This document shows, in pieces, positions 23,882 through 62,263 of a DNA stretch of 64,000 nt. Position numbers and translations under genes: made by a program. The notes below the pieces were generated by a model. That model was not told where the DNA came from, did not search any database, and saw only the letters and a program-made list of their open reading frames with translations. Each line of letters begins with the position of its first letter. Position 1 is the first letter of the stretch. The stretch lies in contig JACPDA010000005.1 in NCBI GenBank assembly GCA_016184225.1, forward strand, positions 67,590-131,589, written 5' to 3'. Source of the DNA: Candidatus Daviesbacteria bacterium (GTDB lineage Bacteria; Patescibacteriota; Microgenomatia; Daviesbacterales; UBA10151).

Positions 23882-24834
23882 TTGACAGGAAAACTATTAT
23901 TGGGAATATTCCCTTTTCTCTTAAATCCGTAAACCTCCCTAAGTTGGGTAAAAAATATCAAGGCAAAGTCCGTGATAGTTATGTACTTAACGACAAAAGA
24001 ATTATTGTCACAACTGACCGGCAATCTGCATTTGACCGTGTCCTGGGTTTCATTCCATTCAAAGGACAAGTCCTTACTAAACTTTCTGAATTTTGGTTTC
24101 AAAAAACTGCTGATATTATTCAGAATCACTTGCTTTCTGTTCCGGATCCTAATGTGATGGTGGTAAAAAACTGTCAGGTTATTCCGATTGAAATGGTGGT
24201 CCGGGGTTATATCACCGGAGTGACTGATACTTCCATTTGGGGTTCATATGAAAAAGGGGACAGGGTAATTTATGGTGTTAAATTTCCAGAAGGTTTGCAA
24301 AAAAACCAGAAACTTTCTGAGCCGGTGATTACTCCTACTACCAAAGCAGAAGCCGGCCACGATGAAAGGTTAACTGAAAAAGAAATTATCCAGAGAAAGA
24401 TTGTATCCCCGGCGATATGGAAACAGATGAAAAAAACTGCTCTGGATCTTTTTGAGCGAGGACAGGAAATTTGTGATAAGGCAGGGATAATTTTGGTGGA
24501 TACAAAATATGAATTTGGATTGGATAAACAGGGGAAGCTTATATTGGTTGATGAGATCCATACCCCTGACTCTTCAAGATACTGGATAAAAAAAACTTAT
24601 CCAGAAAGATTTAAAAAAGGCGTAGAGCCGGAAAGCTATGATAAAGAACCACTCCGGATTTGGTTTAAGGAGAGAGGTTTTACCGGTAAGGGTAAAATTC
24701 CCAAAATGCCCCCAAGTTTTATTGCCAAATTGAGCAGGCTGTATATGGGAATTTATGAAAAAATCACTGGCAAAAAATTTGTCCCTGAACTTTCAAAAAA
24801 CGTTAATCAAAGAATTATAAAGAACCTCTCCTGA
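23878..24834 (+). CDS. purC: SAICAR synthetase (long form)
   Basis: Conserved SAICAR-synthase blocks (GKVRDSY, TDRQSAFDRV); start moved to the ATG at 23878, which forms an ATGA overlap with purE. Confidence 0.85.
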   Translation: MIDRKTIIGNIPFSLKSVNLPKLGKKYQGKVRDSYVLNDKRIIVTTDRQSAFDRVLGFIPFKGQVLTKLSEFWFQKTADIIQNHLLSVPDPNVMVVKNCQVIPIEMVVRGYITGVTDTSIWGSYEKGDRVIYGVKFPEGLQKNQKLSEPVITPTTKAEAGHDERLTEKEIIQRKIVSPAIWKQMKKTALDLFERGQEICDKAGIILVDTKYEFGLDKQGKLILVDEIHTPDSSRYWIKKTYPERFKKGVEPESYDKEPLRIWFKERGFTGKGKIPKMPPSFIAKLSRLYMGIYEKITGKKFVPELSKNVNQRIIKNLS

Positions 24835-24912
24835 TTTAGGTTTATCCTGATAAACGATTGTTCCCGGCATCATGCTTATATTTTAGCATATTTGGAATTC
24901 AACTCTAGTCAA

Positions 24913-24941
24913 ACTTGACGATCGGCCCCAATAAGTATAGT
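24913..24941 (+). promoter_or_regulatory. Promoter-like TTGACG…TATAGT with an embedded GACGATCGGCCCC half-palindrome upstream of PaaX-like gene 1
   Basis: The CGATCGG motif sits inside the promoter spacer. Confidence 0.4.
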
Positions 24942-24955
24942 CTGAAAATATACCG

Positions 24956-25456
24956 ATGATAAAGAAAAATTCATTAAGTTATTTTTTGCTTCTTGGTTTG
25001 GAGAAATCGATTCAGAGTGGCGTTTTGCTAATTGATTTTGCCTACAATTCCCACTGGTATGTTTATCCCGGGCGAGACCCAAGAGATATAAATTACGGCG
25101 CTCTTTATCAGGCAGTTAGGGATTTGCGTGAGAAAGGCTTTATTGAAACCGAAAAAGACGGCAGAAAAATTATGTTGAAATTAACAGATAAAGGTAGGGA
25201 AGAGGCAATAGTAAAAAAGCTCTTAGCAGAAGAGAAATGGGATAGGAAGTGGAGAATTGTTATTTTCGATGTTCCGGAAAAGCACCGGAAATTAAGAAAA
25301 ATCTTGCGGAGTAAACTTAGGGAGTGGGAATTTGAGCCTTGGCAGAAAAGTGTTTGGGCAGGTAAAAAGGATGTAACAAGTCCATTGCGAAATTTTATTA
25401 AAGAGGTTGGTTTATCTGATTGGGTAAGGGTGGTAGTCGGTGCTGATGTAGCTTAG
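24956..25456 (+). CDS. Short PaaX-family-like transcriptional regulator (wHTH plus WDGKW-motif domain)
   Basis: Matches the PaaX N-terminus/middle region (…KWDRKWRIVIFDVPEKHRKLRKILRSKL…QKSVWAG). Paralog of 59013..59507. Confidence 0.6.
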   Translation: MIKKNSLSYFLLLGLEKSIQSGVLLIDFAYNSHWYVYPGRDPRDINYGALYQAVRDLREKGFIETEKDGRKIMLKLTDKGREEAIVKKLLAEEKWDRKWRIVIFDVPEKHRKLRKILRSKLREWEFEPWQKSVWAGKKDVTSPLRNFIKEVGLSDWVRVVVGADVA

Positions 25457-25477
25457 GATCTCTCACTTTAGACAAAT

Positions 25478-25491
25478 AGGCCGATCGGCCT
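25478..25491. promoter_or_regulatory. Perfect palindrome AGGCCGATCGGCCT just downstream of PaaX-like gene 1
   Basis: 14-bp perfect inverted repeat. Confidence 0.5.
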
Positions 25492-25576
25492 AAACGAGTA
25501 AAGTTGTGTTACCAGAATAATCAAACCGAATGATTGATATTTGACGATAACTATAAGGTATAGTATTATTTGCTGT

Positions 25577-26356
25577 ATGGTTGAGAGAATCAATTTTTCA
25601 ACAAAGGATTTGACCTTTCAATCCGTTACTAATCAACATAGTTTTGATAATTTTTCTGGTGAGCGAGTGTGGTTCAGTAAAAACAATTGGGGCGATGTCA
25701 GATTAGCGAGAGAAGGAAATTCTTCTGTTTTAAGGTGGGTTGATAACCGCATTATATGTTTAGATCCAGGATTTTCTTTCTACTATGATCATAACTACTG
25801 GGTTCAACCTTTTGGTATGGGTTTCCAACCTAAAGAATTAGCTGGTTCATATCCAGCAGTGATCAGTGCTGAGTCTGCAACCGAAGCGGAAGATGGAAGG
25901 ATAGTTGGCGCCATACAATACGGAACATTTTGGTATAACCCGGAAGGCGCTTTAACTGCCATAAGATGTGGAGGATTAACACGCGGAGGGTTTGAGATGA
26001 ATAATCCCTTTTTAGATCTGGTCAGGTTAGACCAGAGTGTGTGGCAAATCTATCGACTGGAAGACGTAACTCAATACACCTATGAGTATTTTCTTAAACA
26101 TAAAGAGAAGCTGCCAGAAGAAGTATTGTTAAAAGATGGGAAGGATATAATTTTTGATGAATTGATTACAAATATCACAGATGACGGTAAGGTTGTAACT
26201 CTTACGCAGAGTACAATTACCGGCCACAAACAAAAAGTTATCCAAGTTCCTTCGCATATAGATATTCTTAAATGGCGGGAAACTTTAGGTAAGCTTGAAG
26301 GTGCATGGGTGCAGGTCTTGAAGGATTTTCCCACGCAAATCGAACTCGTGGTATAA
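25577..26356 (+). CDS. Hypothetical cytoplasmic protein (about 260 aa)
   Basis: ORF with no recognisable motif; the track start at 25541 is also possible. Confidence 0.4.
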   Translation: MVERINFSTKDLTFQSVTNQHSFDNFSGERVWFSKNNWGDVRLAREGNSSVLRWVDNRIICLDPGFSFYYDHNYWVQPFGMGFQPKELAGSYPAVISAESATEAEDGRIVGAIQYGTFWYNPEGALTAIRCGGLTRGGFEMNNPFLDLVRLDQSVWQIYRLEDVTQYTYEYFLKHKEKLPEEVLLKDGKDIIFDELITNITDDGKVVTLTQSTITGHKQKVIQVPSHIDILKWRETLGKLEGAWVQVLKDFPTQIELVV

Positions 26357-44017: not shown

Positions 44018-44097
44018 TATAGAATAGTGACTAGTCGCTAGAGTCTAGAGTCAAGTAATTATTTTCTAGACTCTAGATTCTAGACACTTGACTCTAA
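44018..44097. repeat. Intergenic repeat family 4 (ATAGTGACTAG…GAGTCAAG…TCTAGACTCTAGA…ACTCTA), copy A after rpsR
   Basis: About 80 bp, partly palindromic and rich in tctaga/gagtc. Confidence 0.6.
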
Positions 44098-58902: not shown

Positions 58903-58974
58903 AATAAAAGTACTTGAGGTATTATATCAAGTTTAACTTGATGAAAAAAGGATAAAGAGGAAATTAAAGTCTGT

Positions 58975-59004
58975 ACAAATGTCCTCCGATCGTGGTACAT
59001 TTGT
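58975..59004. promoter_or_regulatory. Palindrome ACAAATGT-CCTCCGATCGTGGT-ACATTTGT overlapping the promoter (TGtGATAAT) of PaaX-like gene 2
   Basis: 8-bp arms around a CGATCG core; the ATG follows within about 9 nt. Confidence 0.5.
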
Positions 59005-59012
59005 GATAATAT

Positions 59013-59507
59013 ATGGCACGACCACCAAGCAAGCGAAAGGTTCTAACAGATTTAGTTCTTTTAGCTTTAGAGAAATCAATTGACGGGTATGTAGCGTTTG
59101 AAGATTTCATTTACAATCCACTGCTAGAAAGACCTGTTAAAAAATCAGTCCTTTCTCAGGTTATAAAAAGACTTCGGGATCAAGGTTTAGTGGAGTTTAT
59201 TAGTGATAATGAGTTAATTTTAAGATTGACTGATTCTGGTAGAGATAAAGCGCTATGGAAGAAGATGGCTCTCGGAGATGAGAAATGGGATGGGAAATGG
59301 CGGCTGGTAATATGGGATGTGCCGGAAAAAAGGAGATTGGCTAGGGATTTACTAAGGTTTAAACTTAAACAGTTAGGTTTTAAACAGTGGCAAAAAAGTG
59401 TTTGGGCTTCAAAGATAAACTGTACTAAGTTATTACGAGATTTTATCAAGCAAGTAGGAATAGAGGATTGGGTGATGGTGATTGAATCCGATAACGTAGG
59501 AGTTTAA
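59013..59507 (+). CDS. Short PaaX-family-like transcriptional regulator (paralog of 24956..25456)
   Basis: KWDGKWRLVIWDVPEKRRLARDLL…QKSVWASK; N-terminal wHTH. Confidence 0.6.
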   Translation: MARPPSKRKVLTDLVLLALEKSIDGYVAFEDFIYNPLLERPVKKSVLSQVIKRLRDQGLVEFISDNELILRLTDSGRDKALWKKMALGDEKWDGKWRLVIWDVPEKRRLARDLLRFKLKQLGFKQWQKSVWASKINCTKLLRDFIKQVGIEDWVMVIESDNVGV

Positions 59508-59508
59508 A

Positions 59509-59538
59509 CATTTGTCCTCCGATCGTGGTACAAATGTG
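59509..59538. promoter_or_regulatory. Near-identical palindrome ACATTTGT-CCTCCGATCGTGGT-ACAAATGT immediately downstream of PaaX-like gene 2
   Basis: Same 14-nt core in direct orientation with the arms swapped. Confidence 0.5.
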
Positions 59539-59590: not shown

Positions 59591-62263
59591 ATGAATAAAT
59601 CTACAAAAAATGAAGTCAGGCTTCCGGTGCATGTTAAGCCTGAGCGGTACAGGATTATGCTCCGGCCGGATCTGGAGGGGTTTACATTTTACGGCGAAGA
59701 AACAATTTTTTTGGTTTTAGAAAAGCCCACCAAACAAATTACCCTGCATGCTGCTGAGCTGGAGATAGAATCGGCAGAATTTATACATGGTAACAAAGAG
59801 GTATGGGCTGGGAGGATTAATTATGATAAAAAAGCGGAAACTGCTACATTTACTTTTGCTAAAAATATTCAAAAAGGCAAAGGACAATTAAAGCTTGCTT
59901 TTAAGGGAATCTTGAATGATAAAATGCGGGGCTTTTACCGTTCCCGCTATGAAGTGAGTGGAGTATCAAAGCATCTGGCTACTACCCAGTTTGAATCAAC
60001 TGATGCCAGGAGGGCTTTTCCCAGCTTTGATGAACCCGCTCAAAAGGCTGTTTTCGATGTGACTTTAGTGGTTCCTGCCAAGACTGTGGCTATCTCCAAC
60101 ACCATTGAATCTAACATCCGAGAACATGAAAGCGGTTACAAGGTAATAGAGTTTGCCCCAACCCCGAAAATGTCTACTTATCTTTTAGCCTTTATTGTGG
60201 GGGAGTTTGAGAGTGTAGAAGTGCAAAGTGCAAAGGGCAAAGTGATAAGGGTTTTTACCACACCGGGTAAAAAAGAACAAGCCAGATTTGCCCTTGATGT
60301 AGCCGGAAAATGCTTGGATTTCTATGAACAATACTTTGGTATCTCTTACCCTTTGCCGGTGTTGGATCTTATTGCAATACCTGATTTTGCTGCCGGGGCC
60401 ATGGAAAACTGGGGAGCAGTGACATATCGCGAATCTTTGCTGTTAATTGATGAGGAGGCTTCCTCCACTGCCAATAAACAATGGGTGGCTTTAGTGATTG
60501 CCCATGAGCTGGCTCACCAGTGGTTTGGCAATTTAGTCACTATGGAGTGGTGGACCCACCTTTGGTTAAATGAAGGTTTTGCCTCATTTATTGAATTCTT
60601 GGCTATTGACCATATTTTCCCGGAGTGGGATATCTGGACCCAATTTGTAGGGAGCGAAATGGGTGAAGCTTTCTCGCTGGACGGCTTAAAAAACACCCAC
60701 CCGATTGAGGTGGAGGTGGGCCATCCGGCCGAGATTTCCGAGATTTTTGATAAGGTCAGCTATTCCAAAGGAGCCTCAATTCTGCGTATGCTTATGTCTT
60801 ATCTGGGGGAAAAAGATTTTCAAAAAGGGTTGCAATTTTATCTTAAAAAACATGCTTATGGAAATGCGGAGACCCAGGATTTGTGGAAAGCATTGGAAGA
60901 AGTTTCCGGGAAACCTGTTGGCAAGCTGATGAAAAACTGGACCTCAAAGCCCGGACATCCGGTGATAAGGTTACAGTCAACAGGCAGCAGGCTACAGTTA
61001 ACACAAAGCAGGTTTTTCTCCTCTCCAATTTCTAAAAGAAAGACGAAAGATGGTGCTGTCTGGAGTATTCCTATCACTGTCATTCTGGGGAGTTCTGCAA
61101 GGCAGAACGACTCCAGAATCGATTCTGGACAAGCCAGAATGACTAATCTATTAATGAATAAAAAATCCATGACTATTTCAGGAATTAAAGATAACGAGTG
61201 GATTAAATTAAATGCCGGGGAGGCGTCATTAGTTAGAGTTGATTATCCGCAGGAATATCTCAAGAAGCTGGAAGAGGCGGTTAAGAATGGAAAACTGCCT
61301 GCAGTGGACAGGTTGGGCCTAATCAGAGATTCTTTCTCTTTGGCAGAGTCAGGTCAAAGCCCAACCACTTTATCTTTGGAGCTGACTCAAAGTTACATGG
61401 GTGAAGAAGATTATACTGTTTGGGCTGAGCTGACGGGAAAACTGCTGCAGCTTGATTCTCTTTTAGCTCTGGAACCATTTTATCCGGATTTCAAAAAATA
61501 CGGCATAAAGATTTATCAAGATATAGGGGGTAAGCTAGGCTGGAAAGCAAGAAAAGGAGAAAAGCATACAGATTCCCTGCTGCGGGGTATGGTTTTAAAT
61601 ATGCTGGGAGGGTTTGGAGATGGGGAGACTATAAAGGTGGCTCAGGAATTATTTAGAGCTTATGTAGTACGTCATTCTGGGGAGCGCAGCGACTCCAGAA
61701 TCAAAGGGGGGGATTCTGGACAAGCCAGAATGACAAGTAGTCACGGCATTCATCCTGATTTAAAGGGAGTTGTTTACAATTTGGTGGCGGAAAACGGTGG
61801 AAAAAAAGAATTCGATACTTTGATGAAGATGTACAAGCAAGAGGAAAATCAACAGGAAAAAGATCGGATTGGCCGGGCTTTGGGGAAGTTTAAAATTAAA
61901 GCCCTTCTTTCTAAAACCCTGGATTTTTCTATTTCCAAGCATGTGAGATTCCAAAACAGTCTGCAAATTATTGCAGCTGTTTGGGCTAATCCGGTCGGCC
62001 GTTATCTGGCCTGGGAGTTTGTAAAAAAGAATTGGAAATTGTTAAAAGATAGGTATGCAGGGGGCCATTATTTTACCAAAGTTTTTGGACCGGCCGGAAG
62101 CTTTACCAAAAAAGTTGATGCCAAAGATATTGAATCCTTTGTCAAGAAAAATCCTGTCCCGGAAGCCAAAAGAACCATTGCCCAAGCCTTGGAACAGATT
62201 TATTCCAATGCAGAGTGGCTAAAAAGGGATAGACAGAAAATCAAAGATTTTCTGTTAAGATAA
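59591..62263 (+). CDS. pepN: Aminopeptidase N (M1 family)
   Basis: GAMEN and HELAHQW…E zinc motifs. Carries two in-frame palindromic repeat inserts (SSARQNDSRIDSGQARMT; RHSGERSDSRIKGGDSGQARMTS). Confidence 0.9.
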   Translation: MNKSTKNEVRLPVHVKPERYRIMLRPDLEGFTFYGEETIFLVLEKPTKQITLHAAELEIESAEFIHGNKEVWAGRINYDKKAETATFTFAKNIQKGKGQLKLAFKGILNDKMRGFYRSRYEVSGVSKHLATTQFESTDARRAFPSFDEPAQKAVFDVTLVVPAKTVAISNTIESNIREHESGYKVIEFAPTPKMSTYLLAFIVGEFESVEVQSAKGKVIRVFTTPGKKEQARFALDVAGKCLDFYEQYFGISYPLPVLDLIAIPDFAAGAMENWGAVTYRESLLLIDEEASSTANKQWVALVIAHELAHQWFGNLVTMEWWTHLWLNEGFASFIEFLAIDHIFPEWDIWTQFVGSEMGEAFSLDGLKNTHPIEVEVGHPAEISEIFDKVSYSKGASILRMLMSYLGEKDFQKGLQFYLKKHAYGNAETQDLWKALEEVSGKPVGKLMKNWTSKPGHPVIRLQSTGSRLQLTQSRFFSSPISKRKTKDGAVWSIPITVILGSSARQNDSRIDSGQARMTNLLMNKKSMTISGIKDNEWIKLNAGEASLVRVDYPQEYLKKLEEAVKNGKLPAVDRLGLIRDSFSLAESGQSPTTLSLELTQSYMGEEDYTVWAELTGKLLQLDSLLALEPFYPDFKKYGIKIYQDIGGKLGWKARKGEKHTDSLLRGMVLNMLGGFGDGETIKVAQELFRAYVVRHSGERSDSRIKGGDSGQARMTSSHGIHPDLKGVVYNLVAENGGKKEFDTLMKMYKQEENQQEKDRIGRALGKFKIKALLSKTLDFSISKHVRFQNSLQIIAAVWANPVGRYLAWEFVKKNWKLLKDRYAGGHYFTKVFGPAGSFTKKVDAKDIESFVKKNPVPEAKRTIAQALEQIYSNAEWLKRDRQKIKDFLLR
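61079..61143. repeat. Family 2 copy, in-frame in pepN (variant left arm)
   Basis: gtcattctggggagttctgcaaggcagaacgactccagaatcgattctggacaagccagaatgac. Confidence 0.75.
61671..61734. repeat. Family 2 copy, in-frame in pepN (near-perfect palindrome)
   Basis: gtcattctggggagcgcagcgactccagaatcaaagggggggattctggacaagccagaatgac. Confidence 0.8.

Follow-up and report, generated by a model that had tools for sequence, protein, structure and literature searches.

A 64-kb stretch of a Candidatus Daviesbacteria genome (Candidate Phyla Radiation, Microgenomates), referred to below as the window, was analysed. It carries two paralogous genes on the plus strand, gene 1 at 24956..25456 and gene 2 at 59013..59507, which encode small proteins of the PaaX repressor family, here named mini-PaaX. 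Each gene is bracketed by two palindromic DNA sites centred on the hexamer CGATCG, and this arrangement was found again in most of the related loci. Based on sequence comparison, the proteins are proposed, with a probability of roughly 0.65, to be dimers that repress their own genes, with a second operator at the 3' end that may act by DNA looping or as a roadblock, and with a Cas2-like domain that would help to read the centre of the dyad.

Both proteins (166 and 164 amino acids; 46% identity) consist of the winged helix and the Cas2-like domain of the PaaX repressor family, without its ligand-binding C-terminal domain. The Pfam model PaaX_M (PF20803, 'PaaX protein central Cas2-like domain') was matched with 64.4 bits (E=1.1e-17) by the gene 1 product and with 77.0 bits (E=1.2e-21) by the gene 2 product, at a cut-off of 24. 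The winged helix of both gave weak Pfam matches to PadR, MarR and HTH_27 models. Neither protein matched the N-terminal PaaX model (PF07848) or PaaX_C (PF08223), and both chains stop, at residues 166 and 164, right after the Cas2-like domain. An AlphaFold2 model of the gene 1 protein (pLDDT 83) comprised a winged helix-turn-helix of three helices and a two-strand wing (approximately residues 7-76), a linker helix (78-91), and a beta-alpha-beta-beta-alpha-beta domain (99-162). In a Foldseek search against the PDB, E. coli PaaX (8a39) was the top match, and the C-terminal half matched Cas2/VapD chains over about 70 residues at a root-mean-square deviation of 2.6-4 Å and a probability of 0.9-1.0. 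The closest solved sequence relatives of the winged helix were AspA (E = 1.4e-6) and MarR chains. An earlier interpretation made from the letters only, here called the sequence-only reading, had described the 166-residue product as PaaX-like, with a winged helix-turn-helix and a WD(R/G)KW…VWA(G/S)K domain; this assignment, to a winged helix-turn-helix plus a PaaX/Cas2-like WDxKW...QKSVW domain, is supported.

The proteins were not classified as PaaX equivalogs, since the C-terminal domain is missing, the TIGR02277 scores are far under the cut-off (36.9 and 25.7 bits versus 264.55) and there is no paa context. They share the Cas2 fold but are not Cas2, because the scores against TIGR01573 (16.5 and 23.4 bits; cut-off 24.5) and PF09827 (20.6 and 14.2 bits; cut-off 23.8) were below the cut-offs and no cas1 gene or array is nearby. 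The family motifs FD[IV]PE and QxSV[WF] correspond to YDI and QxSVF of Cas2. In the family alignment, invariant positions were mostly those of the Cas2-like domain, and the winged helix varied. The family amounts to 6110 clusters at 50% identity. An entry identical to the 166-residue protein is present in NCBI under Daviesbacteria, and several metagenome contigs carry it with the same neighbours. A PADLOC scan for defence systems gave weak matches only, to Cas2 and to a CARF-associated winged helix. The literature search gave no description of these proteins, of the operator, of the double-site layout or of the specificity residue, although a mention in the paper on the E. coli PaaX structure is possible.

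At locus 1, the putative upstream operator was assigned to a 36-bp interval (24904..24939; dyad 24921/24922; core CGATCG at 24919-24924). It overlaps a putative plus-strand promoter (24915..24941) read from the sequence, with TTGACG (24915-24920) as -35 hexamer, a spacer of 15 nt, and TATAGT (24936-24941) as -10 hexamer. The sequence-only reading had placed GACGATCGGCCCC inside the promoter spacer. The element is present between the two hexamers at 24917-24929, but the core also overlaps the final two bases of the -35 hexamer. The ATG follows 14 nt after the -10 hexamer, leaving a very short leader and no Shine-Dalgarno sequence. This promoter had been missed by a consensus scan that allowed spacers of 16-18 nt, because its spacer has only 15 nt; the layout TTGACG-15-TATAGT/TATATT is common to the orthologs L006-L008 (L numbers designate the loci compared), in which the position of the upstream site is kept as well. 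The putative downstream operator of locus 1 (25467..25502, again 36 bp; dyad 25484/25485) has the outer symmetric arms CTTTAG/TAAAG and is 63% identical to the upstream copy in direct orientation. It contains the perfect palindrome AGGCCGATCGGCCT at 25478-25491, which begins 21 nt past the stop codon and extends to the 16-bp palindrome TAGGCCGATCGGCCTA at 25477-25492.

At locus 2, the putative upstream operator (58972..59007) contains a 30-bp palindrome at 58975-59004, ACAAATGT-CCTCCGATCGTGGT-ACATTTGT. Its dyad lies 23 nt before the ATG, it overlaps a likely promoter (TGTACA ... TACATT, or TGTGATAAT), and it is retained in the orthologs L086-L088. The putative downstream operator (59508..59537) is a 30-bp palindrome directly after the stop codon, with the arrangement ACATTTGT-CCTCCGATCGTGGT-ACAAATGT. 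Both palindromes are imperfect, with 12 of 15 positions paired, and have the exact 20-mer TGTCCTCCGATCGTGGTACA in common, for which 0 occurrences are expected by chance. The two copies have the same core orientation with the arms swapped, and are 77% identical directly versus 47% as reverse complements. The perfect palindrome behind gene 1 and the two 30-bp palindromes around the paralog at 59013 were thus found where the sequence-only reading had placed them.

Taken over the whole window, the hexamer CGATCG showed no enrichment (6 observed versus 3.6 expected). Four of the six occurrences, however, lie within 40 bp of the ends of the two paralogs, in about 400 bp of flanks (binomial estimate ~2e-8), and none of the other CGRYCG sites in the 64 kb is an extended palindrome.

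For comparison, one genome per species was searched by a pattern scan, which yielded 552 relatives. The best 80 loci were kept, and counts were made on 79 full-length genes, the two window genes included. Sites were counted as upstream within 100 bp of the ATG and as downstream between -25 and +75 of the stop codon. A second set of 80 further independent loci was fetched from metagenomes using patterns that omitted the QxSVW motif. Among the 79 genes, CGRYCG was present upstream of 73, downstream of 67, and on both sides of 65. The hexamer occurred elsewhere in these loci at 0.43 per kb (0.042 per 100 bp), and the binomial probabilities of the observed bracketing were 5e-93 upstream and 1e-79 downstream. 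In most loci, the flanking hexamers were the only ones in 5.5 kb. The bracketing was replicated in the 80 metagenome loci; about 150 related loci were examined altogether.

The sites are dyads of 30-36 bp in which A-CGRYCG-T alone is conserved family-wide. A motif of the CCGATCGG type, as first proposed for the definition of a regulon, is therefore too narrow; everything outside the universal element is paralog-specific. Arm identity was 66% between the two copies of one locus versus 37% between loci, and each paralog therefore has a site of its own. Across the family, the arms of the two copies of a locus were slightly more alike in the same orientation (0.66) than as reverse complements (0.60). 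Several genomes of less than 1 Mb gave three loci and therefore hold at least three paralogs. Members of Parcubacteria or Saccharibacteria type (L074, L112, L121, L125, L126 and L153) frequently have GCGATCGC for a core, which is also the octamer of the cyanobacterial HIP1 repeat; this may be a coincidence.

Symmetry is unevenly distributed over the sites. The fraction of paired positions was 0.9-1.0 at 1-4 bp from the dyad, about 0.6 at 5-12 bp and 0.8-0.9 at 13-15 bp, and reached the background by about 20 bp. This profile points to two contact zones rather than to a uniform stem; it fits zones about 28 bp apart together with a central contact, and is similar to the wide-dyad geometry of the E. 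coli PaaX operator TGATTC-N27-GAATCA (PMC9493321). A hexamer that agrees with TTGACA in five or six positions, beginning 18-19 nt to the left of the dyad, was found in 59 of 124 upstream versus 21 of 114 downstream sites, and a -10-like hexamer follows just right of the core in the upstream sites. The distance from dyad to ATG peaked at 17-19 nt. The commonest upstream layout is TTGACA, about 16 nt including the core, TACAAT or TATAAT, about 8 nt, and ATG; owing to this short distance between -10 hexamer and start codon, the predicted mRNA is leaderless or nearly so. The downstream sites are tied to the stop codon, mostly at -13 to +41, and some overlap the last codons. Their distance to the next gene start varied from about 17 to 350 bp (starts crudely called); about 70% of the next genes run in the same direction and about a quarter are convergent. 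Promoter function of the downstream site was rejected as a general rule, since -35-like hexamers are rare there.

Loci were sorted by core type, and every column of the protein alignment was tested against the core. A single column stood out, the residue X between Q and S in the QxSVW motif, corresponding to K131 in gene 1 (codon 25346-25348, plus strand) and K128 in gene 2 (codon 59394-59396, plus strand). In the genome set, Q was found in 0 of 57 CGATCG loci versus 12 of 15 CGGCCG loci (Fisher p = 3e-11). Lysine or arginine goes with CGATCG, and Q, H or N with CGGCCG, CGGTCG or CGACCG. In the metagenome set, exclusively CGATCG sites were present in 44 of 47 K/R loci versus 0 of 12 Q/H/N/E loci (p = 4e-10). 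Residue and core were concordant in 125 of 130 tips of a rough neighbour-joining tree, with about 15 parsimony changes per trait (an upper-leaning estimate), and the Q-type proteins were scattered through the tree. In two pairs of orthologs with near-identical arms, core and residue X differ together: L021 (R, CGATCG) versus L026 (Q, CGGCCG), and L027 (K) versus L032 (Q). Proteins with QDS at this position (L122, L133, L140 and L158) have CTATAG-centred palindromes, in L158 a perfect one of 36-38 bp, GTACATGAAAAAACGCTATAGCGTTTTTTCATGTAC, on both sides; they were not counted as independent evidence, because they may form a single clade. In the AlphaFold2 model, residue X lies where the beta-2/beta-3 hairpin of the Cas2-like domain turns.

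From these observations the following mechanism is proposed. A mini-PaaX dimer would bind a double-stranded, dyad-symmetric operator of 30-36 bp, composed of the universal core A-CGRYCG-T and of a second symmetry zone 13-15 bp from the dyad. The outer zone, being paralog-specific, would keep the paralogs of one genome from cross-talk. A conserved Cas2-like domain joined to a variable winged helix matches a conserved core with variable arms. The residue in the QxSVW hairpin may contact the central base pairs, K or R pairing with A.T, Q, H or N with G.C, and D with CTATAG. Contacts in the major groove usually show the opposite preference to this association of K/R with A.T and of Q/H/N with G.C. 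The association would therefore fit a basic side chain entering the A.T minor groove at the dyad, and the minor groove is the one presumably contacted there.

The upstream copy appears to be built into the gene's own sigma-70-type promoter, so occupancy should shut off transcription of the gene. The downstream copy, in the same orientation and about -13 to +40 bp from the stop codon, would be an auxiliary operator. It might cooperate with the 5' site and loop out the gene of about 0.55 kb, which is plausible by likeness to other repressors. Alternatively, the bound protein may form a roadblock and so shield the adjoining housekeeping genes from the transcription unit of the regulator; such a role fits the tight packing of housekeeping genes of the same direction. 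The proposal of operator-like palindromes and autoregulation in the sequence-only reading gained support from the promoter overlap, from the arm identities, and from the covariation in two independent data sets.

Several observations weigh against this proposal. The upstream site of locus 1 is barely symmetric in the window, although more so in the orthologs. Within the 64 kb, each protein has its own two sites only, which is odd for a regulator without a ligand domain. Asp105, at the position of the catalytic Asp of Cas2 after beta-1, is invariant across the family, and some relatives have perfect, mutually identical palindromes of 36-42 bp that are more perfect than usual operators. The AlphaFold2 model is a monomer on which residue 131 cannot be placed on the dyad. 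The next-best couplings were between residues 109-120 and 143-151, mainly in helices of the Cas2-like domain, and the bases 13-15 bp from the dyad; they were not interpreted, because they track clades and may reflect phylogeny. No helical phasing was detected in the spacing of the two sites (median 547 bp; periods of 9.5-12 bp; Rayleigh p ~0.3), and this result neither supports nor excludes looping.

The strongest of the alternatives, although an unlikely one, is that the 3' site is mainly an operator of neighbouring genes, so that the bracketing would reflect sites of a local regulon in successive intergenic regions. Locus L081 (Uhrbacteria contig JACPJN010000007.1) has the perfect 36-bp palindrome TGTCCCAAAATCTCACGGCCGTGAGATTTTGGGACA four times without change, at 2001, 3109, 3914 and 4920, interspersed with the family member and two neighbouring genes of the minus strand; two of the copies share about 40 bp more of flank. 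In L019, a third copy of the site is located upstream of the preceding gene. On account of these two loci, some members probably control neighbouring genes. The predominance of downstream neighbours of the same direction would also suit a local regulon, as would the frequently divergent upstream neighbours, which would share the palindromic promoter region. As the 3' site keeps its place at the stop codon while its distance to the next gene varies, control of neighbours was argued not to be its general role. The low frequency of -35-like hexamers in downstream sites and the quarter of convergent downstream genes point in the same direction, and at locus 1 the next gene has a separate promoter, TTGACG-17-TATTAT, at 25541-25569.

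It is improbable that the palindromes act as hairpins of RNA or single-stranded DNA, be it as terminators, as stabilisers, or as a stem-loop with a CGRYCG loop bound by the Cas2 fold in the manner of an RNA recognition motif. Three of the four window sites folded better than shuffled sequence (z -1.8 to -2.6), the arms swapped at locus 2 (AAA/TTT) preserve pairing, the residue that covaries with the core sits in a ferredoxin-like domain, and some relatives carry perfect palindromes of 36-42 bp, all in favour of hairpins. The symmetry is uneven along the supposed stem, however, with its dip at 5-12 and its peak at 13-15 bp from the dyad, and the transcribed strand had no G.U-compatible excess (74 G/T versus 68 A/C mismatches downstream). 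The upstream site of locus 1 did not fold (z = +0.46), and the upstream sites in general are inside the promoter and precede the transcription start. An intrinsic terminator was ruled out, since the downstream site is not followed by a T-run on the plus strand; the sole terminator-like call (25492-25477) belongs to the minus strand and would serve no gene there. A tRNA was the only match in the Rfam scan.

Very improbable, too, is the view that each bracketed gene and its two sites form, or derive from, a selfish or mobile cassette, whose Cas2-like nuclease or recombination factor would act on the flanking palindromes, comparable to REP/RAYT units or integrons. Flanking repeats of the same orientation, at least three paralogs in several genomes and the invariant Asp105 would be expected of such a unit. 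The slot between rseP and proS holds members in opposite orientation in Curtissbacteria (L010/L011/L013) and Daviesbacteria (L066-L070), and these proteins belong to different branches of the family. A gene for a GNAT acetyltransferase accompanies members in two different slots (L006, L007, L008 and L069), before or behind the regulator; locus 1 of the window lacks it. The regulator block of the window (24829-25608) is 88.6% identical at the DNA level to that of L006 (2367-3153), compared with 73-80% for the neighbours purE/purC and prs; stronger constraint or recent exchange could explain the difference.

Against mobility stands the fact that the paralogs keep their housekeeping slots across species and genera (purC/prs, dnaB/tRNA-Leu/pepN, carB/Fic, comEA/comEC, trmD, ndk/sortase and rseP/proS). 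Moreover, the breakpoints of two indels next to the gene, relative to L006, lie outside the palindromes at distances of 75 and 116 bp, and the palindromes are not scattered over the 64-kb window. Searches of phage and plasmid collections gave no relatives, and no transposase or integrase gene adjoins the units. The 'small autonomous module' of the sequence-only reading, taken as a mobile unit, is therefore not supported. A bolder version, which must be regarded as a long shot, is that the units are or descend from autonomous elements whose Cas2-fold domain recognises its own palindromic repeats of about 36 bp and acts on them sequence-specifically, for example by nicking or recombining them. 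If true, they would be a free-living counterpart of the pairing of Cas2 with palindromic CRISPR repeats; such activity would have left its traces in the retained Asp, in the flipped orientations and, in some lineages, in perfect repeats identical to one another.

Chance, or a CGATCG restriction or methylation motif unrelated to the genes, is refuted: although the hexamer is its own reverse complement and is about as frequent in the window as composition predicts, which the sequence-only reading had named as the possible objection, its positional association over the 79 loci (p ~1e-79 to 1e-93) was replicated in 80 more, and the core covaries with a protein residue.

The proposed self-repressing dimer with two operators can be compared with several known systems. 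PaaX is the phenylacetyl-CoA-responsive repressor of E. coli and Pseudomonas. The E. coli protein binds TGATTC-N27-GAATCA and represses its own promoter (Px) by blocking RNA polymerase (PMC9493321). Mini-PaaX proteins share with PaaX, their best structural match, the order of winged helix and Cas2-like middle domain, and a wide dyad overlapping the own promoter, predicted in silico for mini-PaaX (dyads of 30-36 bp with embedded TTGACA and -10 hexamer). They differ from it in lacking PaaX_C, in their low TIGR02277 scores, and in the absence of paa genes nearby. The operators differ by an added conserved central core, CGRYCG, and by a second copy at the gene's own stop codon, and several mini-PaaX genomes hold at least three paralogs with private arms. 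TTHA0973 was dropped as a comparator, because it is a TetR-type PaaR.

In phage lambda, cI-rex is flanked by OL and OR, which are bound by the CI product itself, and long-range looping tightens autoregulation. The position of a repressor gene between two operator regions of its own product is the common feature. The lambda operators, in contrast, are about 2.4 kb apart, consist of triple sites and also control lytic promoters; the fold is unrelated, and looping by mini-PaaX is hypothetical, with no phasing of the sites.

With Cas2 and VapD, mini-PaaX shares the ferredoxin-like C-terminal half, the FD[IV]PE and QxSV[WF] motifs and the invariant Asp. In Cas1-Cas2 complexes, Cas2 dimers extend along the DNA duplex; sequence-specific reading of a dyad centre, as proposed here, is not known for Cas2. 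The sub-cut-off scores and the fusion to a winged helix set mini-PaaX apart, and Tandem Repeats Finder detected no CRISPR-like array in the window, where the adjacent genes are housekeeping genes without cas1.

AspA of the Sulfolobus plasmid pNOB8 (PDB 4rs8, 5k1y), the closest solved sequence relative of the winged helix, is a centromere-binding protein that binds a palindrome adjoining its own gene. AspA, however, has no domain besides its winged helix, is part of a plasmid partition system and spreads along DNA; no ParA or ParB partners were seen among the genes neighbouring mini-PaaX.

Repetitive extragenic palindromes (REP) and their associated transposases (RAYT) likewise present a single gene flanked by cognate palindromic repeats, with repeat families that differ between paralogs. 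RAYTs, however, are enzymes of the Y1 HUH type, REPs are scattered, with tens to hundreds of copies, while the mini-PaaX sites in the 64-kb window occur only beside the gene, and the upstream mini-PaaX site is a putative promoter.

Locus 1 is located among purE, purC and prs, and locus 2 among dnaB, tRNA-Leu and pepN; no paa genes are present among these neighbours. The close relative L006 lacks the gene downstream of locus 1 (25577-26356; 259-271 amino acids, no recorded Pfam match) but retains the promoter of this gene and its first ~30 nt directly ahead of prs. The pepN open reading frame (59591..62263) contains two in-frame copies of about 50 nt with the palindrome TCCAGAATCGATTCTGGA, at 61093-61143 and 61675-61734. 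Each adds a similar peptide (…DSRI..GQARMT…), and they look like a small palindromic repeat tolerated in a coding region. A further near-perfect palindrome of 34 bp, tctagagtcaagtaATTATTttctagactctaga, at approximately 44044-44077 is unrelated to the CGRYCG sites.

Members of the Candidate Phyla Radiation have tiny genomes with few recognisable regulators, and their transcription control is almost uncharted. Here, sequence alone yielded a predicted operator, a predicted leaderless promoter architecture and a specificity rule of one residue (K/R with A.T; Q/H/N with G.C). It is an unusual design for a regulator to have a conserved operator at the stop codon of its own gene. Should the hairpin indeed recognise the central bases of the dyad, PaaX-type repressors would have in their 'dimerisation domain' a DNA-reading element as well, which would bear on how the Cas2 fold handles DNA.

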